Source: a virus
Strand: one strand, 5' to 3'
Length of the DNA stretch: 64,000 bases
Virus record (IMG/VR): IMGVR_UViG_3300044611_002115
Coordinates: 13,540 to 77,539 of that record
The notes under the pieces: generated by a model
Database searches by the model: none
Told to the model about the DNA's origin: nothing
What the model saw: the letters and a program-made list of their open reading frames with translations, nothing else
Part shown: piece by piece, positions 1 to 63,091 of the stretch
Position numbering within the stretch: position 1 is the stretch's first letter
Layout: each line of letters begins with the position of its first letter
Position numbers and translations under genes: made by a program

Positions 1-32
1 GAAAGAAAAAGTGCAACGGTTGCAATTTGCTG

Positions 33-60
33 TTGACAATGAATCTGCAACAGCTACCTT
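33..60 (+). promoter_or_regulatory. Sigma70-like phage promoter, class TTGACAAYNAATCTGCAA
   Basis: TTGACA-ATGAATCTGCAACAGC-TACCTT directly before the ORF at 67. The same motif recurs about 11 times before gene blocks. Confidence 0.8.
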
Positions 61-66
61 GGAGTC

Positions 67-897
67 GTGAGCAACAACACCACATCAACGGCACTCGCAG
101 CCACAAGCGAGCACAGCACACAAGTCGAAGTCGTCAACCACAGCAGCAAGCAGGTCGCGGAATATAACGCGCTGCACGCCACGCTCATCAACACGGGACT
201 CATGTTCCCCCGCGTGCAGTCCGAGAAGGCCAAGCAGCAGGAGGCCGCAGAGGACGCAGCGCGCGCCAAGCAGCAGCGCGAGGACGCGAAGCTCGCCGCC
301 CTGTTCGCTCCCGTGCGCGAAATCAACCTCCGCCTCAAGTCCGAGTTCCCCACCGTCGGGGAGCGCGATGCCGTCAGCTACAGCATCAGCGAGACGCGCC
401 GCAACACGGGGACATGGAGCCGCCATCGCGGGGAAATCATCGGCGTCACGATCCGCATGCACGGGGCGCACGGCGTCACGCGCAACTTCCCGTTCAACAA
501 GTCGGGGAGCATCAACTACGTGAAGATCGAAGCGCTGCTGCGCAATGCGTGGGAAGCCGCTGCCTCCCGCGTCGAGGAAGCCAAGCGCGTTGCCAACGCA
601 CGTGCAGCCGCCAAGGATGCGCTGCCCGAGGGCACGCTGGAGCGCGTCAAAGCGATCACCAAGACCACCTACGAGAGCGTCACTATGCAGGTCGTGGACG
701 GCAAGGTGACGTTCTCGCACATGCACTATCCCGGCCAAGGGCGCAGCCCCTACGAGCGCGTCGTGTTCCCCGTCGCCAGCCCCGCCGCAGTGCTGCGCAT
801 CCTCGACATCCGCGAGGCCGCGAAGGCGCAGGAGAAGGCCGTGCTCGTGCAGGACGAAGCGCGCGGCATCAGCAGCGCTACACTCGCCGCCATCTAA
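67..897 (+). CDS. Hypothetical protein (early)
   Basis: 276-aa ORF with GC3-rich codon pattern, right after a promoter. Confidence 0.8.
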   Translation: MSNNTTSTALAATSEHSTQVEVVNHSSKQVAEYNALHATLINTGLMFPRVQSEKAKQQEAAEDAARAKQQREDAKLAALFAPVREINLRLKSEFPTVGERDAVSYSISETRRNTGTWSRHRGEIIGVTIRMHGAHGVTRNFPFNKSGSINYVKIEALLRNAWEAAASRVEEAKRVANARAAAKDALPEGTLERVKAITKTTYESVTMQVVDGKVTFSHMHYPGQGRSPYERVVFPVASPAAVLRILDIREAAKAQEKAVLVQDEARGISSATLAAI

Positions 898-937
898 CGC
901 ACACGTCAACCGCAACCATCAACACCACACACGCACA

Positions 938-1618
938 ATGAAACTCGCAACCACAGCCACAGCTCCCGCCGCTAAGCGCGGGCACAGCAGCGCCCCGAAA
1001 GTCACCAAGAAAGCCACGCTCGCGTTTGTGCGGGAGAAGCTCGGCAGCGACACGCGCTGGGCGACCCGCGCGCTGCACCTCGTTTTCCAAGCGCAGACGG
1101 CGCAGGAGCAGGCCAGCGCAACAACGCACGACGACAACGGCGTGGGCTTCTCCGGCGTGGACGCGGAGTTCCTCACCTCCCTCGCCAACCAGATCAACGG
1201 CGGGCGGACGCTCTCCTACAAGCAGAACACGTGGCTGCTGCGCAAGATGCCCAAGTATGCGGGGCAGGTCATTGCACGCAGCGACGCGCAGAAGCTCGCC
1301 GCGCAAGTGCTCGCGCATCTCAACGGCACAGCGCCCGCAGCGCCCGCCGCCCCCAGCGCTCCCGCCTACGGGTGCGCTGTGCAGTGGGACGCCAAGGAGC
1401 TGCTCAAGGGCGAGAGCGTTCAGAGCAGCTACTACGACAGCAGCTTCTACAGCGTCCCCTTCACGGGCAGCTACAGCCACTCGGACATCTACGAGCAGCT
1501 CAGCCCCCGCTACCGCAGCACGGGCAACGTGTTCGGCGGATACAGCACGCTGGGCACCATCACGCAGCTCGACGACACGCACGCGCGGGTCGAAGTCGTT
1601 TACCACATCGGGGAATGA
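938..1618 (+). CDS. Hypothetical protein
   Basis: 226-aa ORF with AC-rich leader. The N-half contains NGVGFSGVDAEFLTSLA..Q...GRTLS.KQ, a block typical of phage hypotheticals. Confidence 0.8.
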   Translation: MKLATTATAPAAKRGHSSAPKVTKKATLAFVREKLGSDTRWATRALHLVFQAQTAQEQASATTHDDNGVGFSGVDAEFLTSLANQINGGRTLSYKQNTWLLRKMPKYAGQVIARSDAQKLAAQVLAHLNGTAPAAPAAPSAPAYGCAVQWDAKELLKGESVQSSYYDSSFYSVPFTGSYSHSDIYEQLSPRYRSTGNVFGGYSTLGTITQLDDTHARVEVVYHIGE

Positions 1619-1983
1619 ACGCAGCGCACGCACTACACGCCATGAACACCATCACCAGAATCAACAGCACGGGCGGAGCGCAGCACGTGTGGCACATCGA
1701 CACCATCTCCCGCACGCAGCGCAGCACGGGGCGCAGCTACTACGTGGAAGCGGACACGCTGCGCGAAGCAGTGCGCTCCATCCGCACGCGCGTTCCCCGC
1801 ACGCAGTTCGCGCTCGCAGTGGGGGCGCAGGGGTGCTGGCACAGCAGCACGGACGCAGCGCTTTCGTGGGTCGAGGCGCAGGAGGCCGCGCAATCGCACA
1901 AAAAGGCGTCCAGCTCCCTCCGCAGCGGGCGGAGCGCACGGCTGGGACGCGGCACGCAGGGAGCGCAGGGGGACGGGGAATGA
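1615..1983 (+). CDS. Hypothetical protein
   Basis: ATG overlaps the previous stop; alternative start at 1642. Confidence 0.55.
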   Translation: MNAAHALHAMNTITRINSTGGAQHVWHIDTISRTQRSTGRSYYVEADTLREAVRSIRTRVPRTQFALAVGAQGCWHSSTDAALSWVEAQEAAQSHKKASSSLRSGRSARLGRGTQGAQGDGE

Positions 1984-2129
1984 GCGCGCAAGCTCAAATT
2001 CTCCTGCACTTGGGCGCACTGCTGCGCGAGTGCCTGCGGGGCACCCCGAAGGTCACGTGGCACGTGCAGGGGATAGGGCGCGCCCTGCGCATCAGCCGGT
2101 GAAGCACAGCAGCGCTCACACGCAGCACG

Positions 2130-2162
2130 GGAGGGGAGCCAGCGCTCCCCTCCTTCATTTTG
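2130..2162 (+). terminator. Probable intrinsic terminator
   Basis: GGAGGGGAGC-CAGC-GCTCCCCTCC hairpin followed by TTCATTTTG. Confidence 0.6.
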
Positions 2163-2268
2163 TGCTGCGGAGCTTTTTACGGGCCATTCTGTGCAAACTT
2201 GCCGCCTTGCCGCCCATCCCTCCAACCCCTACACTTTCCAACGCAGTAAACACCAACACCAAAACACC

Positions 2269-3282
2269 ATGAACACTACACCAAGAAAACCCATGCTCGC
2301 GGAGACGTGCGACGACATCAACGCGCTGCGCTTCCCGCTACTAGCGACCGCAAAATTGGACGGCATCCGCTGCCTCACGCTTCCCCACACGGGAGGCTTG
2401 TTCCGCTGCAACGCCGTGTCGCGCAAGTTCAAGCCCATCCCGAACGCGCACATCCGCGATTGGGTGGAGACGCACCTCCCAGCGGGACTCGACGGGGAGC
2501 TAATGATTGTGGCGGAGGACGGCAGCGCGCTGCCCTTCCAAGCCACCACGAGCGGCGTGATGAAACACACGGGCACGCCCTGCTTCCAGTATCACGTTTT
2601 CGACTACTGCGGGCGCGGGCTGGACACGCCCTACACGGAGCGGCTGCAACAGTTGCAATTCCTGCGCCTCCCGCGCGGCACGTGCAAGCTCGTGCTCCCC
2701 GTGCTCATCAACAACGTGGAGGAGCTGCTGGCGTTCGAGGCCAAGTGCCTCGCGGAAGGCTACGAGGGCGTCATGGTGCGCACGCCGGATGGCCCCTACA
2801 AGGAAGGCCGCAGCACAGTGCGCGAGCAGTGGCTACTAAAGGTCAAGCGCTTCAAGGACGACGAGGGCTACGTGTGCGGGGCGGAGGAAGCGAGGGAGAA
2901 CACCAATGAGGCGGGGAAGGACGAGCTGGGGCACACGAAGCGCAGCACGGCAAAGGCGGGCATGCGGGGGAAGGGGCACGCGGGGTCGTTTATCGTTAAG
3001 CCCTGCACGCAGGGAGCGCCCACAGCAGCGGACTTCGCCTACATCAAAGAGAACGAGCATAGGCTGGACGCTGCACTCGCCGCCCACCCCTACCTGTTCA
3101 GCGCCAGCACGAGCGTCATTACAAAGGGCAAGCGGTTCATCCCCATGAGCAGCGTGCCCGCGCTGCTGCACAGGATGGTGGTTTACAAGCACCAGCCCAC
3201 GGGCGTCCTAGTCAAGCCCCGCTTCCCCGTCATTAAGGGCTACAGGGACGCCATTGACATCGGGGAGCCGGAGCAGGATTAG
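2269..3282 (+). CDS. ATP-dependent DNA ligase
   Basis: Motif I KLDGIR, LDGELM, YHVFD, EGYEGVMVR and LLKVKRF, with C-terminal PRFP. Confidence 0.93.
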   Translation: MNTTPRKPMLAETCDDINALRFPLLATAKLDGIRCLTLPHTGGLFRCNAVSRKFKPIPNAHIRDWVETHLPAGLDGELMIVAEDGSALPFQATTSGVMKHTGTPCFQYHVFDYCGRGLDTPYTERLQQLQFLRLPRGTCKLVLPVLINNVEELLAFEAKCLAEGYEGVMVRTPDGPYKEGRSTVREQWLLKVKRFKDDEGYVCGAEEARENTNEAGKDELGHTKRSTAKAGMRGKGHAGSFIVKPCTQGAPTAADFAYIKENEHRLDAALAAHPYLFSASTSVITKGKRFIPMSSVPALLHRMVVYKHQPTGVLVKPRFPVIKGYRDAIDIGEPEQD

Positions 3283-3286
3283 TCCG

Positions 3287-3318
3287 TTGACAACTGATCT
3301 GCAACTGTGCAGCATAGT
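3287..3318 (+). promoter_or_regulatory. Phage promoter (TTGACA..ATCTGCAA class)
   Basis: GTTGACAACTGATCTGCAAC in the gap after the ligase. Confidence 0.7.
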
Positions 3319-3330
3319 CAGCAGACACCA

Positions 3331-3693
3331 ATGCCCGTAATCCAAATCACCAAGTTCGACAACATCGTGCAGCGCTTCATCCGCTTTAGCTCTCCCGTGC
3401 TGCCCTGCCGCGTCTATCGCATTCAGTGCGTCGTGGGGCACTTCGGGGAGGCTGACCCAGAGCGCGTGCTTGCGCTGTGTGACGTGTGCATAGTGGAGGG
3501 GACGCCCTACTACCGCATCGGGGACGTGGGGCGCGTGCGCGAGCGAGTGTGCATAAGCGCGGAGGAGTTCGCCTACGTGCGCTCCTGCTACGTGCGGAGC
3601 GAGGATTTACCAACAGTGAGGACGCTGTTACCGCTTGCGCGGCTGCGCCCCTCCAACATAACCAAGCGCAAGCACAGGAGGATAGAAGTATGA
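3331..3693 (+). CDS. Hypothetical protein
   Basis: ORF between promoter and groES; ends KRKHRRIEV. Confidence 0.65.
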   Translation: MPVIQITKFDNIVQRFIRFSSPVLPCRVYRIQCVVGHFGEADPERVLALCDVCIVEGTPYYRIGDVGRVRERVCISAEEFAYVRSCYVRSEDLPTVRTLLPLARLRPSNITKRKHRRIEV

Positions 3694-3962
3694 CAGGATT
3701 CACGCCAATCAAAGACCGCGTTCTCGTCCGCATGGACGCGCGCAAGGAACAGACCGCAGGGGGCATCGTGCTGCCCGAGTTCTCGCAGACCACGGAGACG
3801 TGGGGCGAGGTGTGCGCAGTGGGAAACAAGGTGGAGGACTTGCGCACGGGCGACCGCGTGATGGTGGAGTCCCACGTGGGCACGCACGTCGTTGTCAAAG
3901 GCGTGGACTACATCCTCATCGAGGAGTCCCGCGTGAAGGTCATGCAGCAGCAGGGGGCGTGA
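3690..3962 (+). CDS. groES: Co-chaperonin GroES (Cpn10)
   Basis: FTPIKDRVLV...TAGGIVLP...GEVCAVG...GDRVM...GVDYILIEE, the classic Cpn10 signature. Confidence 0.93.
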   Translation: MTGFTPIKDRVLVRMDARKEQTAGGIVLPEFSQTTETWGEVCAVGNKVEDLRTGDRVMVESHVGTHVVVKGVDYILIEESRVKVMQQQGA

Positions 3963-4222
3963 TGCAAGCGCTGCAAGGTGCCCACGTGCTTCCGCTGCTG
4001 CTCGCGCTGGGGCTTGTGCTCTGGACGCTGCTGGGGTGGCTTGCGCTGCGGGCCTACATGCAGAGCTGGACGCTGGAAATCAAATGGCCGTGGGAGCTTG
4101 TGTTCCTGCTGCTGTGCGGCCCCGTCGCTTGGGCGGGGCTGCTGGTGTTAATGTTTACAACACGAAAGGACACGGAAGATGAAAAAAGGAATACTGCAAG
4201 AGACGAGCGGGATGACGACTAG
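3962..4222 (+). CDS. Small membrane protein (2 TM)
   Basis: Two hydrophobic stretches; ATG overlaps the groES stop. Confidence 0.65.
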   Translation: MQALQGAHVLPLLLALGLVLWTLLGWLALRAYMQSWTLEIKWPWELVFLLLCGPVAWAGLLVLMFTTRKDTEDEKRNTARDERDDD

Positions 4223-4820
4223 GGGCGGGACGCACTTTGTTGACCACGACACGGATATGGTGGTGGCAGTGACGGACGCCTCCTTCTCCATGCGCTTCGT
4301 CACGGGAATGCTGGGGCTGCTGGAGGAGGGAAGCAGCGAGCGGCGCGTGCTGCAAGTGGGGACGCAGGAGCTTGCCCTCTACCGCAGCAGCACGTTCTTT
4401 CGCTGGGCGCTGCTCCTCGACCCCTTCGTGCGCCTCGCCTACGCTTGGGCGGCATACCAGCAGGAGGACGCGGAGGGGGCGGGGCTGCTGACCTACGGGG
4501 ACTTTGTGGCGAGCCGTTTGGAGCACGGGGCACCCACCCCCAGCGGGGGCGCTGCCCACGAGTTTCTCCTCGTGCGCCAAGTGGACTACCTAACGGTCGG
4601 GAAGGATTATGAGGTGGACGCGCTGTTCCGCTTCGACGCCGCAGCGGAGTGGCTCCCAATGATGCAGCGCCGCTTCCTGCTGCCGGAGTTCAACTTCATC
4701 TACGACCCTCCCCAAGTGCCGGAGCTGCCGCGCAGCACTCGGCTCCTAGTCCATAAGGCTTATGGCGAGGACTTGGAGTTGTTCAAGCAGATAGGCGACG
4801 CCCCGTTCCTCGTGCTGTAG
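4179..4820 (+). CDS. Sulfotransferase family 2-like protein (degenerate)
   Basis: LLLDPFVRLAYAW resembles the FVRNPYxRLVSxY motif. Q.DYL, D.LFRFD and C-terminal Y.EDLELF also fit this family. The 5'-PSB motif is not evident. Confidence 0.5.
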   Translation: MKKGILQETSGMTTRGGTHFVDHDTDMVVAVTDASFSMRFVTGMLGLLEEGSSERRVLQVGTQELALYRSSTFFRWALLLDPFVRLAYAWAAYQQEDAEGAGLLTYGDFVASRLEHGAPTPSGGAAHEFLLVRQVDYLTVGKDYEVDALFRFDAAAEWLPMMQRRFLLPEFNFIYDPPQVPELPRSTRLLVHKAYGEDLELFKQIGDAPFLVL

Positions 4821-4920
4821 CGGGGGCGGGTTTATTCTGCGCGCTGCAACAGTTGCAGTGTCAAGGATATTTTCTTGCCAACGCGGGGCGCATGTTTCAC
4901 AGTCCAAGCAACCTTTCGCC

Positions 4921-6228
4921 ATGAGCATACTACGCCGCCGACTAGACCTCACCTCCTCCAAGCGCCAGCTTGCCGTGGAGTCCCGCATCCCCAGCACCAA
5001 GGAGCGCAGGTTTATTGAGAACAGGCTGAGCTTCCCGCTGCACAGGTTCACGGACTTTGAATCCTACATCAGCGCGGGCAGCAAGCAGGTCTGGGCCACG
5101 TTCCGCGCGTGCCACCTTGTAGCCTCCGTCATTATGGGGACGGACTTTAAGGTGGTGAAGCCCGACCAGCCCCTATGGACTCCCAACCCTGCCAAGGACG
5201 ACGAGATGTTTCTCCTCGGCAGGCCAAACCCTTTGGACTCGTGGAAGGAGCTGCTGTATATGTGGGTCTATCACATCAAGCTCACGGGCTGCGCGTTCTG
5301 GCTAAAGGACGAGATTAACGCGCTGGGGCAACCCACCGCCGTCTATCCCCTGCTGCCGCAATACATGCGCATCGTGCCCGACGAGAAGAAGAACATTGCG
5401 GGGTTCATCTACCACGTGAACGGGCGGGAGGTTAAGTTCACGCCGGAGGAAATTATTTACTTCCGCCGCCCGCACCCCGCGTCAACCGTGTGGGGCATGG
5501 GGGACATTGAGCCAAGCGAGCCTCTGTTCAACGCGTTCATCAACCGCTCCACCTACGAGGAAAAGTTTATGGAGAACGGGGCGCAGCCGAGCGGAGTTAT
5601 GACGCTCAAGGAAAAGGTGGACGACCCTGCGGAGTGGGCAAAGCTCAAGAGCTGGTGGAATACGGAGTATGGTGGAAAGAAGAACGCGGGCAAAACGGCG
5701 TTCCTCCAAGGCGAGTGGGAATACCACAAGCTCGGCTTAGACCAGCAGGCCATGCAGTCGCTTGAGCGGGAGAAGCTCACCGTGGAGCAAATCTTCATCA
5801 ACCACGGCGTTCCCCTATCCATCGCGGGCATCCTTGGCGCTGCCAACTACGCCACCGCCAAGCAGGACGAGCTGAACTTCCGCAAGTATGAAATCGTCCC
5901 GCTGCTGGAAATGTTTTGCGGCAAGCTAAACCGCGAGGGCGCGCTCTTTCCGCTGTTCAAAAACAACACGCAGCTCGCCTATGAGTTGAGCGGGCTTGTG
6001 GACGTGGAGCAGGTGACGAAGGAATACGGGCCGCTCCTGCGCCTCGGCGCTATCACGCCAAACGAGATTCGCAAGCTCGCGGGGCTTAACCCCGTCAACG
6101 ACCCCTACCTCGACCAATACTTCATCGACAGCATGCTGTCCCCTATGGAGATGGCGGGGCTTGCCACCGTCCCGCCCGCTCCCGCGCCAAGCAAGAGCGC
6201 GGACTACCGCAAACTCAAGCTCAGCTAA
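4921..6228 (+). CDS. Portal protein, HK97 family
   Basis: L.RPNP, LTGCAFW, YPLLP, EIIYFR, F.NGAQPSGV, GKKNAGKT, HGVP, ITPNEIR. Confidence 0.95.
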   Translation: MSILRRRLDLTSSKRQLAVESRIPSTKERRFIENRLSFPLHRFTDFESYISAGSKQVWATFRACHLVASVIMGTDFKVVKPDQPLWTPNPAKDDEMFLLGRPNPLDSWKELLYMWVYHIKLTGCAFWLKDEINALGQPTAVYPLLPQYMRIVPDEKKNIAGFIYHVNGREVKFTPEEIIYFRRPHPASTVWGMGDIEPSEPLFNAFINRSTYEEKFMENGAQPSGVMTLKEKVDDPAEWAKLKSWWNTEYGGKKNAGKTAFLQGEWEYHKLGLDQQAMQSLEREKLTVEQIFINHGVPLSIAGILGAANYATAKQDELNFRKYEIVPLLEMFCGKLNREGALFPLFKNNTQLAYELSGLVDVEQVTKEYGPLLRLGAITPNEIRKLAGLNPVNDPYLDQYFIDSMLSPMEMAGLATVPPAPAPSKSADYRKLKLS

Positions 6229-8829: not shown

Positions 8830-8914
8830 CGGAGTGCAACTGTTGCAGCGCTTCCGCAGTTTTTCTTGACAGCGGGGGCACGGGGAATCACGGTGGCGGC
8901 AACACGACGCACCC

Positions 8915-10735: not shown

Positions 10736-11617
10736 ATGAAAGTAAGACTTCGCAGATCAACCTTGGCAGAATGGACAGAAGTGAATCCCGTGCTCTTGCT
10801 GGGCGAAGCGGGATATGAAAGCGACACCCGCCTCATGCGGGTGGGTGATGGCACAACGGCCTTCCTTTCACTGCCTCATGTGAAGGCGGCAGCGGAGTCC
10901 ATCATCGCAAAAGTAACGGTGGCGGATCAGGCGGCTCGTTACGCCCTGACTTTGCAACAGGTGCAAAATGGCGACTACGTTTTCCAGACTGACACCTCCG
11001 TTCTCTACGAGGTGACGGATCAGACCGCCCTCAACGGTGCGGGAGGCTATACCGCCCTTGCCACGGTCACGGCTGCGGCGATTTCCGACTCCACAGCCGC
11101 AGGCCGCGCATTGCTCACGGCGGCGGATGCGGCGGAGCAGCGCACACTGATCGGCGCGGTGTATCCAACGATGCTGTTTCCTTCTGGGCAGAACATTATT
11201 GGGGATATTCCTACTGATTGGGGAAATGGAACCCATGACACAACACTGATTTTTGGAAATGCCGTAACTGCGATTGGAGGTGCAGTGTTCAACTACTGCG
11301 CTAGTCTCACCGGAACCCTAATTATTCCAAGCACAGTAATCACGGTTGGCCCTAGTGCCTTTGGAGGTTGCGCATTCACTGAGCTTACCATCCCCAACTC
11401 AGTAGCCATTCTCGGTGATGGGGCATTTAACAGTATGGGGTATTTGACTAGGGTTAATTGCTATGTCACCAAAACCATTATTGATTCCGGTTATGGTATG
11501 TTTGAAAGCATCGGTTCTCTTACCCTCCATGCGAGAGCTTCAGACGCAACATGGACGGCAGGCACCGGACTCACAGTTGGTGAGTGTTACAATGTAACCG
11601 TTATCAAAGACCTATGA
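10736..11617 (+). CDS. Fibre/receptor-binding protein: Mtd-N/hyaluronidase-type N-terminus with BspA-like leucine-rich repeats
   Basis: LRRSTLAEWTEVNPVLLLGEAGYESDT..RVGDG, followed by IPSTVITVGPSAF and IPNSVAILGDGAF repeats. Confidence 0.8.
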   Translation: MKVRLRRSTLAEWTEVNPVLLLGEAGYESDTRLMRVGDGTTAFLSLPHVKAAAESIIAKVTVADQAARYALTLQQVQNGDYVFQTDTSVLYEVTDQTALNGAGGYTALATVTAAAISDSTAAGRALLTAADAAEQRTLIGAVYPTMLFPSGQNIIGDIPTDWGNGTHDTTLIFGNAVTAIGGAVFNYCASLTGTLIIPSTVITVGPSAFGGCAFTELTIPNSVAILGDGAFNSMGYLTRVNCYVTKTIIDSGYGMFESIGSLTLHARASDATWTAGTGLTVGECYNVTVIKDL

Positions 11618-12769: not shown

Positions 12770-13302
12770 AAATCCTCGTCGCCTTAGTCCTCGCTGCAAC
12801 TGTTGCAACTTCCATCGCCCTGACCCCAGCGGAGCAGCGGGAGTATGTGAAGGGGTTGCAGGTTGAGCTGAACGCGCTGCGTGCAAACCTTGAGGGCGCG
12901 GAGAACGCCAATGCCGCGCTGCAAGTAAACCTCGACACAACCAAGTCCGCGCTGCTCGCATCCTACCAAAAGAACGAGACGGCGCTTGCTGTGCAAACCG
13001 CCGCGCTCACGCAGCTCATGCGCATGGAGGCAGACCTCAAGGTTAAGGACGAGGCATACGGCAAGCTCATTGCGGACAACGAGCAGCTCAAGCTCGACAA
13101 GGCGGCGGAGCATGCCAAATACATCCGCGCCAAATTTTTCATTGGCGGAGTGGCGGGCGTGATTGCTGCCATGCTCTGCGTCCTGCTGCTGCTAAAGTAT
13201 GCGGGACTCGCGCTCAACACGCTGCCCGGTTTAGGCGTCGTTGCGGGTGCTCCCATCGTTGTTGGTGGGCTGGTGTTTGGTGCCGCCCAGCTTTTCTTCT
13301 AA
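12766..13302 (+). CDS. Signal peptide, coiled coil and 2 TM protein; possible spanin
   Basis: Hydrophobic N-terminus, long heptad region, two C-terminal TM helices. Confidence 0.55.
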   Translation: MKILVALVLAATVATSIALTPAEQREYVKGLQVELNALRANLEGAENANAALQVNLDTTKSALLASYQKNETALAVQTAALTQLMRMEADLKVKDEAYGKLIADNEQLKLDKAAEHAKYIRAKFFIGGVAGVIAAMLCVLLLLKYAGLALNTLPGLGVVAGAPIVVGGLVFGAAQLFF

Positions 13303-44147: not shown

Positions 44148-44185
44148 CTGCAACAGTTGCAACAAAAGAAAGACACCATAACACC

Positions 44186-44527: not shown

Positions 44528-44528
44528 C

Positions 44529-45701: not shown

Positions 45702-45721
45702 TAGACCTATGAACCCCAGCG

Positions 45722-46153: not shown

Positions 46154-46158
46154 GCATC

Positions 46159-46521: not shown

Positions 46522-46826
46522 CAAGCGTGAGCGATGTGCACCGCCTTGTGAACCACGCCCTAGAGGGAGCGCCCAACAGGGACAGGAACGCGCTGCGCCT
46601 AGTGCTCAGCCCACAAGCATTCAGCGAGCTGATGCGCGACCCCAGCGTGCGCATGGTAAACTCCAGACCCCCAGCGCAGCAGGTCGCCCAGATTTTTGGC
46701 ATCAACCTTTCACAGCACCAGCAGAGCGCTCCCGCCCTCCTGTTCTTTACGGAGCGCCACGCGGACGACTACAAGGCGGGGCGCATCAGGGAGCGCGACC
46801 TGCTCAACGGGAGGCTGCGCCCGTGA
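46518..46826 (+). CDS. Hypothetical protein
   Basis: 102 aa, overlapping starts and stops. Confidence 0.6.
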   Translation: MTSVSDVHRLVNHALEGAPNRDRNALRLVLSPQAFSELMRDPSVRMVNSRPPAQQVAQIFGINLSQHQQSAPALLFFTERHADDYKAGRIRERDLLNGRLRP

Positions 46827-47704: not shown

Positions 47705-47705
47705 C

Positions 47706-48257: not shown

Positions 48258-48936
48258 ATACAGCCCAACTTGTGCAAACGGGGAGCGCTGGATAATGCCT
48301 TGGGAGTTTGAGCTGCTAAAGAAAAGGCAGCAGGAATATCAAAAGCGGGAGCACGTGCGGGCCAAGAACAATGCGTGGAACAGGGAGAACAGAAAACAGC
48401 CCCACATCCGCAAGCGGGCGCGAGAGTATAAAAAGAAGCGCATGCAAAGCAACCCATCAGCCCGTGTTGCTGCCGCCCTACGTGGCAGGGTGCGGGAGGT
48501 GTTCCTTTCACAAGGACTGCGCAAGACGGACAAGACGTTCAAGTTGGTGGGGTGCAGCCACGCGGAGCTGCGTGCGCATCTTGAGGCGCAGTTCACGGAG
48601 GGCATGACGTGGGAAAATTACGGCGCATGGGAAATCGACCATCGCATCCCGTGCAGGGCGTTCGACCTCACGCTGCCCGAGCACAGGAGCGCCTGTTTTC
48701 ACTTCACAAATTTGCAGCCCCTCTGGCGCACGGACAACCGCAGGAAATCGGGAAAATTGAAGGAGCAGCTCGCCCGCGATGCACTTTTTTCAAAAAATTA
48801 TTTCAACTCCATCCTGCACGTGCGGCTCAACCAGCCTCCCGCCTCCTTCCTGCTGCGGCACCGCATAAACACAAGCGCAGCGAGCGGGGGCACCCCCAGC
48901 CGCTTCGACGCCCCCGTGCGCAGCAGGAGACGCTGA
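48178..48936 (+). CDS. HNH homing-type endonuclease fused to a copy of the GIY-YIG C-terminus
   Basis: LVGCS..EL..HLE.QF.EGMTWENYG.WEIDH.IP...FHFTNLQPLW..DN..K. Confidence 0.87.
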   Translation: MEDQRPPKSQRVLRFGFVRADGKVFREYSPTCANGERWIMPWEFELLKKRQQEYQKREHVRAKNNAWNRENRKQPHIRKRAREYKKKRMQSNPSARVAAALRGRVREVFLSQGLRKTDKTFKLVGCSHAELRAHLEAQFTEGMTWENYGAWEIDHRIPCRAFDLTLPEHRSACFHFTNLQPLWRTDNRRKSGKLKEQLARDALFSKNYFNSILHVRLNQPPASFLLRHRINTSAASGGTPSRFDAPVRSRRR

Positions 48937-48961
48937 GCGCTGCAACTGTTGCAATTTCCTG

Positions 48962-48990
48962 TTGACAACAAATCTGCAAGCACGCATATT
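48962..48990 (+). promoter_or_regulatory. Phage promoter preceded by the palindrome at 48941
   Basis: TTGACAACAAATCTGCAAGCACG-CATATT. Confidence 0.8.
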
Positions 48991-49059: not shown

Positions 49060-50244
49060 ATGTCAAAAGCAGCATTCACAACCAACGAAATCGTCCGCTT
49101 CACGGGATACAGCGAGCCGCTCGAAAAGGGGCAGAAGCCCATCCTCACCAAGGGCGAGAAGGTGCGCATCACCGGACAAGTGGACGCGGAATCGTTCAAC
49201 GTCGTCAGCGTCAACAACCCGAAGGCCAAGGACTCCGTGTTCAACACGGAAATCGAGGCGCTCAAAATCTCCGCCGCCCCTGCCGCCAAAGCGGACAAGG
49301 CCGCGAAGGTGAAAGCGCCCGCTGAGAAGCCCGCCGCTGCCGCCAAAGTGCCGCAGATCAAGAAGGGCAAAGCGCCCGCAGCCAAGCCCGCTCCCGCGAA
49401 GGCCGAGAAAGCCGCCAAGACCAAAAAGGTCAAAGCGGAGAAGCCCGCCAAAGCGCCCAAGGCCGTGAAGCCGGAAGCGGAGGAGCTGAAACCGCTCGCC
49501 ATGTCCGCCTACAGCGAGGACGTGCAGAAGCAGGTCAAGTCCGACGCCAGCGCGCTCAAAGCCGCCAAGTCGCTCGCGCAGCGCATTCAGGAAACCTTCT
49601 GGACGCTGGGCGGCGTGCTGTCCTTCATTCAGCGCAACAAGTCGTTCGTCAAAGTGGAGACGGAGGCGGGCGAGCACCCCTACGCGGGATCGCACGGCTT
49701 CAAGAACTACGTGGAGGTCGAGCTGGGGATGAAATACCGCCGCGCGATGTATTATGTCAGCATCTACGAGACGTTCTCACCGCTGGGCGTGGAGCAGGAA
49801 ACCGTCCTCGCGCTGGGCTGGGCCAAGGCGAAGGAACTCACGGGCGTCGTCAACAAGAAAAACGTGCAGGGCTGGCTCAAGAAAGCGGACGAGCTGGGGC
49901 GCGAGGACTTGCAGGCGGAAATCAAGCAGAGCAAGGTCAAAGCGGGGGACGGGGATGTGAACCCGCCCGCTGGCCCCACCGCCACCGCCACCACGTTCAA
50001 GTTCCGCTTGTTCGAGGATCAGGGCAAAGTCGTCGCCAGCGCCATCAAAGATGCGCAGGAGAAGCTCGGAGAGGGCGCGGATGAAAACGCCGCGTTCGCT
50101 CACATCGTCAGCGAGTGGGCAGTGCTCAACGGCACGGGGGCCAAGCCCGACATCGACACCGCGTTCGCTTCGCTGGAAAACAGCTACGGACTCGCGGACG
50201 TGAGCAGCTACGCCAAGAGCCACTACGGCAAGGGCGGCAAGTAG
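49060..50244 (+). CDS. Histone H1-like (Lys/Ala/Pro-rich) DNA-binding protein with C-terminal helical domain
   Basis: PAAKA/KAEKPAK repeats, highly biased codons, own promoter and terminator; HGFKNYVEVELGMKYRRAMYY is HTH-like. Confidence 0.72.
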   Translation: MSKAAFTTNEIVRFTGYSEPLEKGQKPILTKGEKVRITGQVDAESFNVVSVNNPKAKDSVFNTEIEALKISAAPAAKADKAAKVKAPAEKPAAAAKVPQIKKGKAPAAKPAPAKAEKAAKTKKVKAEKPAKAPKAVKPEAEELKPLAMSAYSEDVQKQVKSDASALKAAKSLAQRIQETFWTLGGVLSFIQRNKSFVKVETEAGEHPYAGSHGFKNYVEVELGMKYRRAMYYVSIYETFSPLGVEQETVLALGWAKAKELTGVVNKKNVQGWLKKADELGREDLQAEIKQSKVKAGDGDVNPPAGPTATATTFKFRLFEDQGKVVASAIKDAQEKLGEGADENAAFAHIVSEWAVLNGTGAKPDIDTAFASLENSYGLADVSSYAKSHYGKGGK

Positions 50245-50273
50245 CAGCACGCGCACAAGCTGCGCACAACAAG

Positions 50274-50304
50274 AGGCGCGCTCCACACGGGGCGCGCCTT
50301 TTTT
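50274..50304 (+). terminator. Intrinsic terminator
   Basis: AGGCGCGCTCC-ACAC-GGGGCGCGCCT followed by TTTTT. Confidence 0.85.
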
Positions 50305-50731: not shown

Positions 50732-51280
50732 ATGAACGCACCCAGCGCATCAAAACTCGAAATTCACGCCTTTCTGTGCGAAGCACAAGCCTTCTACGAA
50801 GCGGCGTTCTCCCGCTTGGGCATCGCGCGGGAGGGCGCGTGCCTCCTGTGGGCAATCGCTGCAACAGTTGCAGCACGGCAGCAGGGGCACCGCGCTATCC
50901 TGCAAGGGGGCAGCGCCAACTTCCTCACCGTAGCGCACAAGCGCGACGACGGGGTGTGCAACAACGGATTCGGCTACACGTTCATCGCAGCGGAGGCCGT
51001 GCAGCACGTGCGGGCGGGGAACTTCCCAGAAATGCACGTGTGGGCAGCGCTGCCTGACGTGCGCCCCGTGCCTCTCCTCATCGACCTCACCACGGGGTTC
51101 CAGCCCGTGCAACTGCTGCGCATGCGCGGCGTCCGCTGGGACGAGGAAGTGCTGCCCCCGCCCTACCTCGTCGCCCCCGTGAACGATTTGCCCGACGAGC
51201 TGCAATACACGGCTGACCCCGTGGCAACGGCCTACGCCATGCGCTGCGCGGTGGAGCTGTGTGGGAGGGACATCATATGA
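50732..51280 (+). CDS. Hypothetical protein, possible Cys-His-Asp (transglutaminase/papain-like) fold
   Basis: GACL.W ... HVW ... IDLT spacing. Confidence 0.5.
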   Translation: MNAPSASKLEIHAFLCEAQAFYEAAFSRLGIAREGACLLWAIAATVAARQQGHRAILQGGSANFLTVAHKRDDGVCNNGFGYTFIAAEAVQHVRAGNFPEMHVWAALPDVRPVPLLIDLTTGFQPVQLLRMRGVRWDEEVLPPPYLVAPVNDLPDELQYTADPVATAYAMRCAVELCGRDII

Positions 51281-52059: not shown

Positions 52060-52619
52060 AAAAGACACCACGGGATTTTCCCATCACGGTCTGGACGGAC
52101 GGGAGCTGCTGGAACGCCAACGCGGGCGGGGACGGGAAAGGGGGCTGGGCGTTTGTTGCCACGTGGCGCGGGCGCGTGCTGCGCCGCTTCGGGCACCTTC
52201 CCCGCACAACCAACAACGAAGCGGAGCTGACCGCCATCTACCGCGCCCTGTGTTTCGTGCAGCGCACGGAGCACCCGCTGGAAATCATCACGGACTCGCA
52301 ATACTGCTATCGCGCCCTCTGCGTGTGGCGCTTTGGCTGGGCAGACGGCGGGTGGGTGAACAGCGTGGGCAACCCCGTCGCCAACTTGCAACTGTTGCAG
52401 CGCATCATCCGCCTCATTGAGTGGCATAGGGAAACGCGTGCGCTGGAGTTCAACTGGACGCGGGGGCACGCGGGCACAGCGCTCAACGAGGAAGCGGACG
52501 TGCTGGCGGGCAACGCGCGCAGGGACGGGGACACGGACGACAGGGGATGCGAGTTCCCGCTCCCGCACAATTTAGCAGCAGACACCAACAACACCACGAA
52601 AGGAAAAACAACACCATGA
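52056..52619 (+). CDS. rnhA: Ribonuclease HI
   Basis: WTDGSC..N...GGWA...TTNNEAELTA...TDSQY...N.V.N..L...W.RGH.G...NE.AD.LA. Confidence 0.93.
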   Translation: MKKTPRDFPITVWTDGSCWNANAGGDGKGGWAFVATWRGRVLRRFGHLPRTTNNEAELTAIYRALCFVQRTEHPLEIITDSQYCYRALCVWRFGWADGGWVNSVGNPVANLQLLQRIIRLIEWHRETRALEFNWTRGHAGTALNEEADVLAGNARRDGDTDDRGCEFPLPHNLAADTNNTTKGKTTP

Positions 52620-54836: not shown

Positions 54837-54876
54837 AACACTGCAACAGTTGCAACACTCAACACCACAACACACC

Positions 54877-58577: not shown

Positions 58578-58807
58578 GCGGAGACGTTGCCACGTGGGGC
58601 GAGGAGAAGGACGGGGAGCTGCAACTGTTGCAGTCGCCCATCATGGAGATATTCAAATGCACGTGCAGCATCGCGCGCGGGGAGGACGGCACGTGCAGCA
58701 TCAAAATCCTAACGATGGGCGGGGCCATCTTTTTCAGCCAGCCCGACATGGAGAAAGCAAAGGCGAGCGCGGAGCGGCATCTGCGCCGCATGAACTACCT
58801 CCTATGA
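58574..58807 (+). CDS. Hypothetical protein
   Basis: 77 aa, ATGA overlaps. Confidence 0.55.
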   Translation: MSGDVATWGEEKDGELQLLQSPIMEIFKCTCSIARGEDGTCSIKILTMGGAIFFSQPDMEKAKASAERHLRRMNYLL

Positions 58808-59574: not shown

Positions 59575-59951
59575 GCAAGGTGTCTTTCTTCTCCTTCGCG
59601 CTGCGCTTCGGGTGCTGGATGGTGTGCGAGCACGGGCTGTTCCACTTTGCCCCCGTCAACGGGGTTTATGGCTGGCGGCGCGTAAAGGGCATGTCCCTGC
59701 ATTGGATAACTCCCGCGTGGCTGCGGCTGGGGCCATGCGACGGACGCATGTTCCTGCACCTCGGCCTAGACCTCTACCTGTTTTGGTTCAACATGGGGCT
59801 GGTGTTTGACACGGAAACTCCCCTATGGCTTGCGCTGCTGTGCGCCCTGCTCGCTTTCATCTTTGCAGGCAGTGCGCTGCACAGGCAGCAGGACGCGGCG
59901 CGGAGAATTGCAACAGTTGCAGCGAACAACAAACCAAAGGAGACACCATGA
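59571..59951 (+). CDS. Membrane protein
   Basis: Hydrophobic segments, GTG overlap. Confidence 0.5.
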   Translation: MSKVSFFSFALRFGCWMVCEHGLFHFAPVNGVYGWRRVKGMSLHWITPAWLRLGPCDGRMFLHLGLDLYLFWFNMGLVFDTETPLWLALLCALLAFIFAGSALHRQQDAARRIATVAANNKPKETP

Positions 59952-61531: not shown

Positions 61532-61565
61532 TTTCAACATCAACACCACACACACACACGCCACA

Positions 61566-61775
61566 ATGAACATCACAACACTCAAGCAGGCACAGGAGAG
61601 GCTCGCCAAGGGGCAGGAGTTCACGCTCACACCAATCGGCTACGGAATGCACCGCCGCATCAACTGCGGGCCGCTGGAGGGCACATATCACACGGACATC
61701 ATGACGGCCACAATCGCGCGGGCGATGCGCAAGCGCGGGCACGTCGCGGTGGTGCGCAACGGCTACACCTACTGA
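61566..61775 (+). CDS. Hypothetical protein
   Basis: AC-rich leader like the one before 938. Confidence 0.6.
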   Translation: MNITTLKQAQERLAKGQEFTLTPIGYGMHRRINCGPLEGTYHTDIMTATIARAMRKRGHVAVVRNGYTY

Positions 61776-61789
61776 AAGGGCGACACGCA

Positions 61790-61987
61790 ATGAACGCACG
61801 CACAACACTCACACGCGCCACGCTGCGGGCAATGGCAGACGCGCGGGGCTACGTCTGCAAGCGCGGCGGGAAACGACCCACGCTGCGGATATGCGAGGAC
61901 GGAACAATCTACAGGGCGGACGTGGAGCTGCACCTCACCAAGCGCATGACACTGCGGCAGGCAGCGCAAGCCCTTCACATCAACTAG
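61790..61987 (+). CDS. Hypothetical protein
   Basis: 65 aa. Confidence 0.55.
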   Translation: MNARTTLTRATLRAMADARGYVCKRGGKRPTLRICEDGTIYRADVELHLTKRMTLRQAAQALHIN

Positions 61988-62005
61988 CACCACAACACCA
62001 ACACC

Positions 62006-62218
62006 ATGAAAACGTATTCGTTCAAACTGGAGGGACTGCTCCTCTACCCCCGCGCCGAGCAACTGCTGGGCCGCTACATGCAGCGCACCATCCCCTTCGC
62101 CCACTACAGCGAGCAGCACAGGCAGGTCTATCACGACAGGCGCATCAGCAAAGCGCAGCAGGCCGCATTCAACGCCTACATCGCCGCACTGCGCGACGCG
62201 GACGTGGGGGCACCGTAG
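62006..62218 (+). CDS. Hypothetical protein
   Basis: ACACCATG start. Confidence 0.55.
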   Translation: MKTYSFKLEGLLLYPRAEQLLGRYMQRTIPFAHYSEQHRQVYHDRRISKAQQAAFNAYIAALRDADVGAP

Positions 62219-62247
62219 CGCGCAAGCAGCAGGCCAAGCACAACAAC

Positions 62248-62290
62248 GGCGGGGATGCGTGTGTGTGAGAAGCGCGCTCCCCGCCTTTTT
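62248..62290 (+). terminator. Intrinsic terminator
   Basis: GGCGGGGA...TCCCCGCC followed by TTTTT. Confidence 0.7.
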
Positions 62291-62545
62291 GTTGACCCCA
62301 GCGAGTGCGGCGGGTAATCCATCCTCCCATGCCCCACGTAGAACTCGCACAAGCCCTCGTCGCCCTACTCGTGCTCCCTCCCGCACTCCTCATCTGCGCG
62401 TGCACCCTCGTCTGCCTCCTGCGCCACAAGTAGCACGCCCTGCACGCACAGCAGCAGCGGAAAATTCGGGCCACTGCACGGCGTCACAACTAATCTGCAA
62501 AAGTGACTTGACGGACGGGCACGTGGCTGGCAGGTTGGCGGCACA

Positions 62546-63091
62546 GTGCAAGAGGGCATTCCATACACCATCGCAAGCGCGGCCACGCAGGGGAGCAGAT
62601 ACGTTCCAATGTTGCAACAGTTGCAGCAGCTCTATCGTCCCCACGGCGTCGCGTTCCGCCCCGTCGAGTTCAAGGACATGGGCGGGTGGGCACCCAACAC
62701 GCACAGCAAGCCCCTCCTCGTCCATCACATGATTGCGCTGGGAAAGACGGCGCTGCTAGTGGACGCTGACACCGCTATTCTCCCGCCCCCGCCATTCCTG
62801 CCCGAAGGGGAGTGGGACGTGGGGCTGCTGGATCAGTTTGTGCAGGGGCATAAGAATCCGTGGGCGGCGTCCGTGTTTGCCGTGCAGCCCACGCAGGCGT
62901 CGCTCCTGTGGGTGAGCGAGTGGCTGGCGCTGTGTTTGCAGAACCGCGCACAGTGCGACCACGGGCACATGACCAGCTCCATCATCCGCGCCAAGGATCG
63001 CGGCCTCAAAGTCATTGACCTCGCAAGCACGCTCAAGGGCCGCGTGCTGTTCAACCACCTAACGCCCGACCGCAAGCAGGCGTCATTCTAA
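62546..63091 (+). CDS. Nucleotide-diphospho-sugar transferase (GT-A)
   Basis: W..N..SKP...LLVDADT (DxD), ASVF.V, W...C...CD; start uncertain. Confidence 0.72.
   Translation: MQEGIPYTIASAATQGSRYVPMLQQLQQLYRPHGVAFRPVEFKDMGGWAPNTHSKPLLVHHMIALGKTALLVDADTAILPPPPFLPEGEWDVGLLDQFVQGHKNPWAASVFAVQPTQASLLWVSEWLALCLQNRAQCDHGHMTSSIIRAKDRGLKVIDLASTLKGRVLFNHLTPDRKQASF

Follow-up and report, generated by a model that had tools for sequence, protein, structure and literature searches.

What keeps a 13-bp palindrome at regular distances along a phage chromosome, and which protein reads it? The window analysed here, 64,000 nucleotides long, covers bases 13540-77539 of a virus record that is complete at 77,539 bp and bears direct terminal repeats. 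The habitat information of the record consists of lake-water metagenomes only. The window holds 24 exact copies of TGCAACWGTTGCA and two with one mismatch (at 12 and 10953), in agreement with the coordinates of an earlier note on this DNA, while dinucleotide shuffling gives a mean of 0.02 exact copies (100 shuffles). In the complete 77.5-kb genome the counts rise to 29 exact and 2 near copies. The sites of the window, with no strand assigned, are as follows.

12-24, one-mismatch site (TGCAACGGTTGCA); ends 8 bp 5' of a -35 TTGACA at 33
2645-2657, in CDS (LQQLQ)
4845-4857, intergenic, 1 bp 5' of ORF 4858-6228
8835-8847, intergenic, 18 bp 5' of TTGACA
10953-10965, one-mismatch site (TGCAACAGGTGCA)
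12795-12807, in CDS (AATVA), gene start 29 nt away
15102-15114, at CDS 3' end, 9 bp 5' of TTGACT
17506-17518, covering a CDS stop codon; orthologous site in the relative G001
21585-21597, in a 661-aa ORF (IATVA), the tape measure gene according to the earlier note
23112-23124, second site of the 661-aa ORF (AATVA)
28090-28102, intergenic, 23 bp 5' of the promoter at 28126, itself 5' of the AAA+ gene
30422-30434, in CDS, 65 bp 5' of the promoter at 30500
32322-32334, intergenic, 5' of the O-like initiator gene
33546-33558, C-terminal part of the O-like initiator gene; G001 ortholog 13/13 identical within a 70%-identity HSP
35830-35842, N-terminal part of PolA; G001 ortholog 13/13 identical
38940-38952, between PolA and the following gene; the orthologous G001 site is a TGAAAC variant
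40726-40738, primase 3' end, 33 bp 5' of the promoter at 40772; orthologous G001 site
42456-42468, N-terminal part of the SF2 helicase gene; orthologous G001 site
44149-44161, 2 bp past the stop of the HTH_17 gene (43635-44147); G001 site 38 bp off the predicted orthologous position
48941-48953, 8 bp 5' of the candidate reader gene's -35 box; arrangement kept in 18 of 22 relatives
50860-50872, in CDS (AATVA)
52387-52399, in the RNase H gene (LQLLQ)
54842-54854, intergenic
58620-58632, in CDS, gene start 26 nt away
59909-59921, within or 5' of a weakly called ORF
62613-62625, in CDS (LQQLQ)

The gaps between sites range from 1224 to 4978, with a mean of about 2.5-2.6 kb; the earlier note had put the smallest near 1.2 kb and the longest at 23112-28090 and 44149-48941, and the same values were recovered. 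The regularity that it suspected is borne out against a random model. The spacing has a CV of 0.39 against 0.95 under random placement (P<1e-5), and none of 200,000 simulations gave a CV as low or a minimum gap as large.

With crude gene calls, 16 of the window copies fall in CDSs and are read mostly as LQQLQ/LQLLQ or xATVA, as previously described. Genome-wide, 19 in-CDS copies are observed, against a mean of 0.38 and a maximum of 3 upon synonymous codon shuffling within genes. Every compatible peptide of the proteome is encoded by the motif (11 of 11 [LMV]Q[QL]L[QH] and 7 of 7 xATVA). Conservation in related phages is found as well, both at single sites and as arrays across the clade. In the closer relative G001, which has 81 kb and is identical to this phage at about 70% of nucleotides in the alignable parts, 15 sites could be mapped. 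Eight of them are orthologous, where 8.9% would be expected (binomial P ~1e-5), and two are 13/13 identical within HSPs of 70-71% identity. Selection on the DNA itself, as the earlier note had argued, maintains the sites in number, spacing and, inside the replication module, position.

Lattices of the same type occur in the Aeromonas phage HJ05 (23 sites, CV 0.37), the Rhizobium phage L338C (60 sites, 13- and 14-bp mixed, CV 0.53), the Pseudomonas phage SM1 (31 sites, CV 0.59) and the Rhodobacter phage RcDurkin (45 sites, CV 0.75), all under-dispersed, and in the majority of some 30 IMG/VR contigs. The motif differs by lineage: TGCAA-N3/4-TTGCA, TGAAAC.., TGCAGG.. and TGAACC.. are found, and variants occur in 21-kb IMG/VR loci around the primase gene. 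Dyad symmetry and a variable centre point to a dimeric DNA-binding protein, which agrees with the earlier proposal.

All genes lie on a single strand, so that every copy is transcribed, and about 40% of the copies, flanks included, could make a 7-bp stem with a CWG loop. It is nonetheless very improbable that the element works as an ssDNA or RNA hairpin (a signal for priming, RNA processing or stability, or antitermination) and not as a duplex binding site. In whole classes of conserved sites, a 5-6 bp stem would be interrupted by a central mismatch: TGAAAC..GTTGCA sites number 8 in HJ05, 14 in G001 and 7 in locus L154, and TGCAAA..CTTGCA accounts for 21 of the 31 SM1 sites. The stems are short, with no U tract. 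Moreover, the arm sequence is kept among distant phages while the loop length varies, which fits a protein reading duplex half-sites.

Could that protein belong to the host? The motif family is shaped like LacI/GalR operators, and the sites might mimic those of a host repressor of this family. Through them the phage would sense the state of its host at its promoters, or its multiplying genome would titrate the repressor and so increase, for example, the supply of nucleosides or purines. The consensus of E. coli CytR, TGCAA-N2-3-TTGCA with the optimum AATGCAAC-GC-GTTGCATT, is near-identical, and CytR tolerates variable half-site spacing (PMC3454398), as in the mixed sites of L338C. At locus L156 the motif equals the PtxS operator, TGAAACCGGTTTCA (PMC3402500); many motif variants have a central CG, and no LacI-type HTH that could serve as reader is encoded in five lattice phages examined. 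We still consider such mimicry quite unlikely. The motif tracks phage kinship and not the host, TGCAAC being common to Aeromonas (gamma) and Rhizobium (alpha) phages across host classes. CytR is confined to some gamma-proteobacteria, and its sites are few, degenerate, CRP-flanked and placed in host promoters. This phage and L338C are without the central CG, and a decoy requires numbers, not evenness or conserved positions.

A number of sites are found next to promoters of one family.

33-61, plus strand, promoter of the family TTGACAAnnAAnCTGCAA.., with the left half-site in its spacer
3287 (variant), 28126, 30500, 38378, 40772, 48962, 50391 and 54532, starts of further window copies of this family

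A full site lies at most 65 bp 5' of 5 of 10 family promoters. The earlier note had placed seven sites 8-33 bp 5' of a -35 box; this is correct at 12, 8835, 15102, 28090, 40726 and 48941 (TTGAC) and fails at 4845, where there is no clear -35 box. Neither this register nor the enrichment and even spacing would have a reason if the sites were targets of an enzyme that modifies or restricts DNA. We regard enzyme targets, be it of a T5-type nickase or cleavage enzyme or of a DNA-modifying enzyme such as the 7-deazaguanine machinery, as the least probable reading. Site-specific nicks are known from other siphophage genomes, and QueC, QueD, QueE, FolE and several nucleases are encoded in this one; however, a palindrome nicked on both strands would break the chromosome, and none of the four cultured relatives, all of which bear a lattice, shows a detectable match to the que genes.

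All but two of the detectable protein matches to these relatives fall within the replication/recombination module (28217-50244). Its relevant elements are the following.

28217-50244, plus strand, replication/recombination module, from the AAA+ gene through the candidate reader gene
32456-33679, plus strand, O-like initiator gene (g70), weak lambda-O-like N-terminal match
43635-44147, plus strand, HTH_17 protein gene (g80), basic N-terminus and excisionase/MerR-type HTH
48962-48990, plus strand, sigma-70-like promoter of g88, TTGACA-17-CATATT, half-site TGCAA in the spacer
49060-50244, plus strand, candidate reader gene (g88), 394 aa, with domain, structure and dimer predictions
50271-50302, plus strand, intrinsic terminator (14-bp stem and T run), ending the monocistronic g88 unit

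The module encodes AAA+, DUF1257, DUF2997, the O-like initiator, DnaB, PolA, primase, SF2 helicase, the HTH_17 protein and RecA; it also holds a RusA-like resolvase, a Cas4-like exonuclease and the candidate reader gene. The array accompanies this module, not structural or modification genes, and a module protein other than g88, namely g80 or g70, might read the lattice, its even spacing serving replication or recombination. The sites could then act as dispersed points of helicase loading or priming, roughly an Okazaki fragment apart, or as hot spots of recombination by the set of RecA, Cas4-like exonuclease and resolvase. The spacing of 2-3 kb is in the size range of Okazaki fragments, and the palindrome is identical on both strands for either fork direction. 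The g70 and g80 families each turned up in 25 of the examined sources. In 14 of 23 relatives the O-like gene contains a lattice site, reminiscent of the lambda ori inside O, but this number is near the density-based expectation for a 1.3-kb gene. Such a reader seems rather unlikely to us: both lambda-O-like hits of g70 are weak and under curated cut-offs, sites are absent from the 150 bp before every gene of the HTH_17 family, that family does not co-vary with the motif, and the fixed register with -35 boxes is left unexplained.

We propose instead, with a probability of about 0.5, that the palindromes are docking sites for a phage-encoded, dimeric, sequence-specific DNA-binding protein, the likeliest reader being the product of g88. 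Among the four proteins named in the earlier note, it emerged as the best candidate. The gene is monocistronic, with its own promoter and terminator. A site is found within 150 bp 5' of the g88 family gene in 18 of 22 relatives, whereas no other module family exceeds 6 of about 25, and this site often ends 7-9 bp before TTGACA. The conserved site would also be expected if g88 were simply the target that another reader regulates most tightly.

From its predicted layout, g88 consists of an SH3/Tudor/KOW-like N-domain, a disordered Lys/Ala/Pro-rich linker, a ParB/KorB-like HTH domain and an RHH-like region. The helical domain has pLDDT >90 in the whole-protein model and 91-98 in the domain-only model. 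Its best structural matches are ParB-parS 6s6h_B (Z 7.1, rmsd 2.9, 97 aligned) and Spo0J (Z 6.6), followed by KorB (8qa8, Z 6.1; 1r71, Z 5.6); with Foldseek, ParB/Noc make up nearly all top rows, at E ~1. Residues 160-211 of the domain model are similar to RHH proteins (Z ~4.3). The likeness to ParB/KorB is modest and by fold only, with Z <8 and an equally high score for the Rubisco factor Raf1, and it was not picked up by Pfam or PDB sequence profiles. The homodimer model scores 0.67 against 0.00 for the best control, a mark attained by 20 of 30 proteins whose solved structures are pairs and by 1 of 23 whose solved structures are single chains; contact agreement between runs is at least 93% and partner pLDDT at least 82. 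No clean co-variation of the putative recognition helix (YRKAMYLIxIY) with motif classes was seen. Among the lattice phages, homologues of the g88 product are RcDurkin gp82, SM1 gp050 and L338C gp074. Reader-gene homologues also occur in Vibrio phage SIO-2, where 40 kb hold no more than 3-4 sites, none of them 5' of the homologue, and in the distant relatives L175 and L177, in which the lattice was not detected.

A g88 homodimer would bind each palindrome via its ParB/KorB-type HTH domain, assisted by the RHH-like region. It would regulate its own sigma-70-type promoter from the site centred near -50, would do the same at the other sites near promoters and may also act on the half-site within the promoter-family spacer. 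The other sites would be placed where spacing demands, in genes if needed. No stretch of the chromosome would then be farther than about 1-2.5 kb from a bound dimer, which fits a limited-range action along DNA, for example local spreading or bridging by the linker, or the handing over of the SH3-like domain to a passing polymerase or replisome. The model gives no reason for the evenness of coverage. Altogether, the reader would resemble the operator half of the RK2 KorB-OB network, minus the CTP-dependent sliding clamp.

Among known systems, KorB-OB of plasmid RK2 and the repeats of Cluster O mycobacteriophages come closest. OB, on the IncP plasmid RK2, is a palindrome of 13 bp centred on a single base, TTTAGC-S-GCTAAA, and KorB acts over up to 1.5 kb (PMC11790492), a distance of the same order as half a lattice gap. 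Like the lattice, OB sites are dispersed over a mobile replicon, beside and far from promoters; their reader KorB is a dimer whose HTH domain is of ParB type and is similar to the helical domain of g88 in predicted structure (8qa8, 1r71). In contrast, g88 has an SH3-like N-domain instead of the ParB N-domain, and its replicon is apparently a virulent phage. RK2 carries about 12 OB sites, whereas the lattice has 31 in the genome, mostly inside genes and evenly spaced.

The Cluster O repeat is a 17-bp dyad (TGTTCGGNNNCCGAACA) with >30 copies per ~70-kb genome, invariant arms and a variable centre; it is genome-wide, about one third coding and without orientation with transcription, and its function and reader are unknown, with no reader proposed (PMC4351075). 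Copy number, arms and centre, and spread are as in the lattice, but the repeat is denser toward one genome end, and even spacing is not reported (PMC4351075). Its sequence and phage lineage are unrelated, and the host is actinobacterial.

The stoperators of Cluster A mycobacteriophages (L5 gp71), offered earlier as an analogue, are 2-3 dozen 13-14 bp sites across the genome, beyond the promoter operator. They are likewise present in many copies, and a single phage protein reads them, as is proposed for the lattice. They match the lattice poorly, being asymmetric, aligned with the direction of transcription, largely intergenic and bound by the immunity repressor of a temperate phage (PMC4351075), whereas lattice sites are symmetric and mostly in genes. 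Noc-NBS and ParB-parS are scattered 14-16 bp palindromes with ParB-fold HTH dimers as readers, and such structures are among the top fold matches of g88 (6y93, 7ol9, 6s6h, 1vz0). Their readers are CTP-dependent, have a ParB N-domain and control segregation or division; none of these features was found in this genome, nor was a PF02195 match. Segregation in the ParABS sense, suggested previously, is unlikely, as the genome is without ParA, ParB N-terminal domain and integrase.

The view that the system is undescribed stands within the literature searched, in which we found no such lattice, but not as a trait restricted to this phage. The array travels with the replication/recombination module through a wide clade of Proteobacteria phages, its motif drifting among sublineages, and the lattice is a feature of that whole clade.

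An earlier note on this DNA had counted 24 perfect and two near-perfect copies of a 13-bp palindrome, and both counts and coordinates were reproduced. The sequence TGCAACWGTTGCA is matched exactly 24 times in the window, against a mean of 0.02 in 100 dinucleotide-preserving shuffles, and the two copies with one mismatch lie at 12 (central G) and 10953. The window comes from a single 77,539-bp virus record, classed in IMG/VR as complete with direct terminal repeats; this whole genome holds 29 exact and 2 near copies, usually flanked as GC-TGCAACWGTTGCA-GC. The arms are perfectly palindromic; on the coding strand, 19 of the 29 exact copies have A as their central base and 10 have T.

Across the genome, the gaps between sites average ~2.6 kb and range from 1,224 to 4,978 bp. 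Their coefficient of variation (CV) is 0.39, compared with 0.95 under random placement; 0 of 200,000 simulations matched this CV or the minimum gap, which bears out the non-random spacing that the note had described. The two longest site-free gaps, 44149-48941 and 23112-28090, contain two endonuclease-VII-like genes (45722-46153 and 48067-48936) and a stretch of lower GC content (0.57) in which ORF calls are fragmentary. Such content would fit recently acquired DNA that has yet to gain sites.

Selection on the array acts at the DNA level. By our gene calls, which are crude and based on GC3, nearly all genes lie on the + strand and ~19 of the 31 sites (~60%) fall within coding sequences, the remainder being confined to the ~12% of the genome that is non-coding. 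Synonymous codon shuffling within each gene yields a mean of 0.38 in-gene copies, 3 at most, against the 19 observed. The codons required by the site, CAA and TTG, are both disfavoured. All 11 [LMV]Q[QL]L[QH] and all 7 xATVA peptides of the proteome are encoded by the motif, and these peptides are not kept in the orthologous proteins of relatives. Since every compatible peptide is motif-encoded and none is conserved in this way, the DNA signal dictates the peptide and not vice versa.

Arrays of this kind extend across a whole clade. In Aeromonas phage HJ05, the cultured phage closest by PolA, TTGCAACYGGTTGCAA occurs 16 times and TGAAACNNGTTGCA 8 times, and evenly spaced arrays are found in three further cultured phages.

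Arrays in four cultured relatives (phage; sites; motif; CV of gaps; P)
Rhizobium L338C; 60 sites; TGCAAC-N1/2-GTTGCA; CV 0.53; P <1e-5
Pseudomonas SM1; 31 sites; TGCAARCGYTTGCA; CV 0.59; P 0.001
Rhodobacter RcDurkin; 45 sites; TRCAATCGATTGYA; CV 0.75; P 0.03
Aeromonas HJ05; 23 sites; TTGCAACYGGTTGCAA/TGAAACNNGTTGCA; CV 0.37; P <1e-5

In each of these phages, 30-45% of the sites are at least partly non-coding, compared with ~10% of the sequence. Scanning IMG/VR with CTGCAACWGTTGCAG gave single chance matches only, and PolA alone as a query gave no match; a primase profile retrieved 32 loci of ~21 kb each. Most of them carry an array, with motifs specific to the lineage.

Motif types in the IMG/VR loci
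TGCAAC, TGCAAT and TGCAAA
TGCAGGNNCCTGCA and TGAACCNNGGTTCA
TGAAAC and TGAAAT
TTGACCNNNGGTCAA and TTGCACNNNGTGCAA

The clade is large and consists of siphophages of Proteobacteria with genomes of 75-110 kb; its cultured members include SM1 of Pseudomonas aeruginosa, L338C of Rhizobium leguminosarum, RcDurkin of Rhodobacter capsulatus and HJ05 of Aeromonas hydrophila. Across these host classes the motif tracks the kinship of the phages, not that of their hosts. The repeat goes unmentioned in publications on the RcF cluster and on DLP3, and the motif strings were not found in a phage context in the literature searched.

A closer relative, G001, is a complete genome of 81,219 bp, of which ~14 kb can be aligned with this phage at the nucleotide level (66-73% identity). 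It uses the same 13-bp motif, in 22 exact and 15 one-mismatch copies (CV 0.61, P 0.001). With positions predicted from collinear protein anchors, a G001 site lies at most 38 bp from the predicted position for 8 of the 15 mappable sites (random expectation within 100 bp, 8.9%; binomial P ~1e-5). Two sites are inside nucleotide alignments of 70-71% identity, and there all 13 of 13 bases are identical.

Places of sites conserved in G001
boundary after the gene ending at 17522
C-terminal part of the O-like initiator gene
N-terminal part of PolA
spacer after PolA
3' end of the primase gene
N-terminal part of the helicase gene
end of the HTH_17 gene
promoter of the gene for a 394-aa protein

The array is thus evenly spaced and partly conserved in position. 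The note had named a kept peptide with a lost palindrome as evidence against its reading; the relatives instead retain the palindrome even where the peptide has changed.

All but one of the 15 one-mismatch copies in G001 are a TGAAAC/GTTTCA variant. The one-sided TGAAAC half-site accounts for 14 of the 37 G001 sites, and likewise for 8 sites in HJ05 and 7 in an IMG/VR relative (L154); the presumed reader of the array thus apparently accepts A in place of C at the third position of one half-site. A function of the element as a hairpin is unlikely, because whole conserved site classes would then have a mismatched pair halfway along a stem of 5-6 bp.

In shape, the motif family resembles the operators of LacI/GalR proteins, TGNAAN-CG-NTTNCA or TGCAA-N2-3-TTGCA, this phage lacking the central CG. 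The consensus of CytR is TGCAA-N2-3-TTGCA, with an optimum of AATGCAAC-GC-GTTGCATT and relaxed half-site spacing (PMC3454398), and the PtxS operator, TGAAACCGGTTTCA (PMC3402500), is identical to the motif of one relative. A LacI-family protein of the host might accordingly read the array. We keep this as a minor rival, because the motif follows phage rather than host kinship, the LacI-type HTH (PF00356) is absent at E<=1 from five array-bearing phages, and a decoy role would have no need of even spacing.

Some sites adjoin promoters. The genome has a family of sigma-70-like promoters, TTGACAAnnAAnCTGCAA(CAGC)TAnnnT, with weak -10 boxes and an almost invariant spacer that contains the left half-site of the palindrome; the half-site is absent from the relatives' own promoter families.

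Copies of the promoter family
window positions 33, 3287, 28126, 30500, 38378, 40772, 48962, 50391 and 54532
two further copies upstream of the window

A full palindrome stands at most 65 bp upstream in 5 of 10 strict promoter copies, and in two of them exactly 8 bp before the -35 box. L338C, RcDurkin and several IMG/VR relatives show this arrangement too: there, 7-9 bp separate the end of the palindrome from TTGACA. Such a fixed register with -35 boxes makes part of the array operator-like; most of it lies far from any visible promoter. Five lake-water metagenome runs, available as contigs and with no RNA run listed among them, contain the stretch or part of it, essentially without polymorphism. 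Their Logan contigs join at 30588/35827, 35850/38376, 38403/38936 and 38958/40765, at repeated copies of promoter plus palindrome, which looks like an artefact of the assembly graph and not a rearrangement.

The array is linked to one gene module, that of replication and recombination. When this genome is compared with the four cultured ones, all detectable protein matches but two fall within 28217-50244.

Members of the module, 28217-50244
AAA+ ATPase, DUF1257, DUF2997, weakly O-like initiator, DnaB, PolA and primase
SF2 helicase, HTH_17 protein, RecA, RusA-like resolvase, Cas4-like exonuclease and the 394-aa protein without known family

The head of the module (28217-31641) encodes a Ycf46-like AAA+ ATPase, a small protein, DUF1257, DUF2997 and a second small protein, a set present wherever a fetched locus extended far enough. 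The HTH_17 family (43635-44147) is conserved and occurs in 25 of the examined sources; the N-terminus of the protein is very basic (RNxxRRxRYxxDPEYR), it has an HTH of the excisionase/MerR type and, at the C-terminus, an H..Y.R..H motif, and its gene is translationally coupled to that of the SF2 helicase. Neither this protein nor the O-like one has a match among PDB sequences. The PolA of HJ05 (L120:8870-12285) matches in three pieces over 3.3 kb and that of L338C (L121:19842-22669) is annotated as two ORFs, which suggests insertions (intein or homing endonuclease) or frameshifts.

Outside the module, genes for QueC, QueD (PTPS), QueE (radical SAM) and FolE (GTP cyclohydrolase I) occupy genome bases 2413-5312, upstream of the window and immediately before the terminase genes. 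The phage DNA is probably modified, given this 7-deazaguanine precursor cluster. A tie between the array and these genes was considered and rejected: the que genes have no detectable match in the four array-bearing cultured relatives.

Within the module, one gene stands out by its relation to the sites. ORFs of all sources were grouped into families by iterated profile searches and scored for an adjoining site. In 18 of 22 sources, the homologue of the gene at 49060-50244 has such a site no more than 150 bp upstream, and in no source does one lie inside the gene; other families reach at most 6 of ~25 for upstream sites. These homologues include RcDurkin gp82, SM1 gp050 and L338C gp074. In this phage the gene forms a monocistronic unit.

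Features of the monocistronic unit
48941-48953, array site
48962 (start), -35 box
49060-50244, coding sequence of the 394-aa protein
50271-50302, terminator

The 394-aa product is our candidate reader; the site positions singled it out independently of the note, which had also listed this protein. The upstream site could instead mark the gene as just the most tightly controlled target of another reader. By sequence the protein has no usable match in Pfam, PDB sequences or the ESM Atlas, and the PHROGs family to which it belongs carries no name. AlphaFold models, for which 18 homologues were used, consist of an SH3/Tudor/KOW-like N-terminal barrel, a disordered linker of ~80 residues, a confidently modelled helical domain and a strand-helix-helix stretch. 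The linker is rich in Lys, Ala and Pro, acidic in some relatives, and in two homologues it is matched by the histone-H1-like HC2 family. The best fold matches of the helical domain are ParB on parS (6s6h_B, Z 7.1, rmsd 2.9, 97 aligned residues), Spo0J (1vz0_A, Z 6.6) and KorB (8qa8_A, Z 6.1; 1r71_A, Z 5.6); the top Foldseek rows are almost all ParB/Noc (E ~1, probability 0.6-0.92), with Raf1 scoring equally. The modelled likeness to ParB and KorB is thus modest and one of fold only. The strand-helix-helix stretch resembles the ribbon-helix-helix (RHH) proteins NikR, MazE and AmrZ (Z ~4.3).

The C-terminal 246 residues were predicted as a homodimer with a score of 0.67; the best of three controls scored 0.00. 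Among proteins of known structure, 20 of 30 same-chain pairs attain this mark, as does 1 of 23 single chains. Contact agreement between runs is at least 93% and the partner pLDDT at least 82. These predictions support pairing of the candidate as a homodimer.

The putative recognition helix, YRKAMYLIxIY, is near-identical among phages with different motif classes. One suggestive switch, to ASKGR.LAR.Y, occurs once on the tree, in RcDurkin and the IMG/VR relative L164, both of which tolerate A at position 2. Neither this helix nor that of the HTH_17 protein co-varies cleanly with motif class, and kinship confounds the comparison. Homologues of the 394-aa gene are present in two distant relatives (L175 and L177) with no array detected in 21 kb; one is also present in Vibrio phage SIO-2, where 40 kb contain no more than 3-4 sites.

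A ParABS partition system was rejected as an explanation. The N-terminal ParB/Srx CTPase domain (PF02195) has no match in this genome at E<=0.01, and the ParA-type ATPase (PF13614) and tyrosine integrase (PF00589) are absent from this genome and from four relatives. With the tyrosine integrase profile, no sign of lysogeny was seen in this genome. Proteins with a ParB N-domain were likewise discarded as readers, being absent here and encoded in four relatives by unrelated ParB_N genes elsewhere in the genome. The candidate itself falls outside the ParB family, because the CTPase domain and a ParA partner are absent.

ParB/KorB-type sites are short palindromes with a dimeric reader, and here a 13-bp perfect palindrome goes with a predicted homodimer. 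By analogy, the way the array works would come closest to the operator half of the KorB-OB network on RK2, in which a ParB-fold dimer binds a 13-bp palindrome with one central base and controls promoters at distances of up to 1.5 kb (PMC11790492).

That phage genomes can carry dispersed operator-like repeats has been clear from the stoperators and the Cluster O repeats onwards. Stoperators of mycobacteriophages are asymmetric and oriented with transcription, whereas the sites here are perfect palindromes; stoperators are read by a temperate phage's immunity repressor, whereas here the tyrosine integrase is absent. The 17-bp dyad repeats of Cluster O mycobacteriophages resemble the array in kind, not by descent. 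For symmetric, gene-embedded arrays of this sort, neither reader nor purpose is known to us. The Cluster O class comprises >30 copies with invariant arms and a variable centre, spread genome-wide and with a sizeable share in genes (PMC4351075); the present array has 29 + 2 copies, ~60% of them in coding sequences.

Altogether, we infer that a phage-encoded dimer, most likely the 394-aa protein with its modelled ParB-like and RHH parts, occupies each palindrome. At promoter-proximal sites it would regulate transcription, that of its own gene included. The statistical evenness of the array argues for an action of limited range along the DNA; selection would then keep a site wherever a gap would otherwise become too long, and no more. 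Within that range the dimer may spread or form bridges by means of its linker, use its SH3-like domain for a hand-over to RNA polymerase or the replisome, or serve protection.

A bolder reading, which we consider unlikely at roughly one chance in five, is that the array is a genome-wide 'self' code shared by a large phage clade. A CTPase-less ParB-fold/RHH dimer would sit every 2-3 kb, its SH3/KOW-like domain and histone-H1-like linker handing a factor to the passing RNA polymerase or replisome, or gathering replicating chromosomes into a separate compartment. On this reading, the even spacing would correspond to the distance over which hand-over or bridging can work. If true, this would be a mechanism of chromosome marking undescribed for any virus.

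The array shows a DNA-level signal dictating short peptide motifs in many unrelated proteins. Its statistical evenness, its conserved site positions and a single, autoregulated-looking candidate reader make it testable. If that reader is confirmed, it would show a ParB-type DNA-binding domain used without the CTP clamp, and would open a way to study the organisation or marking of the chromosome by these phages during infection.
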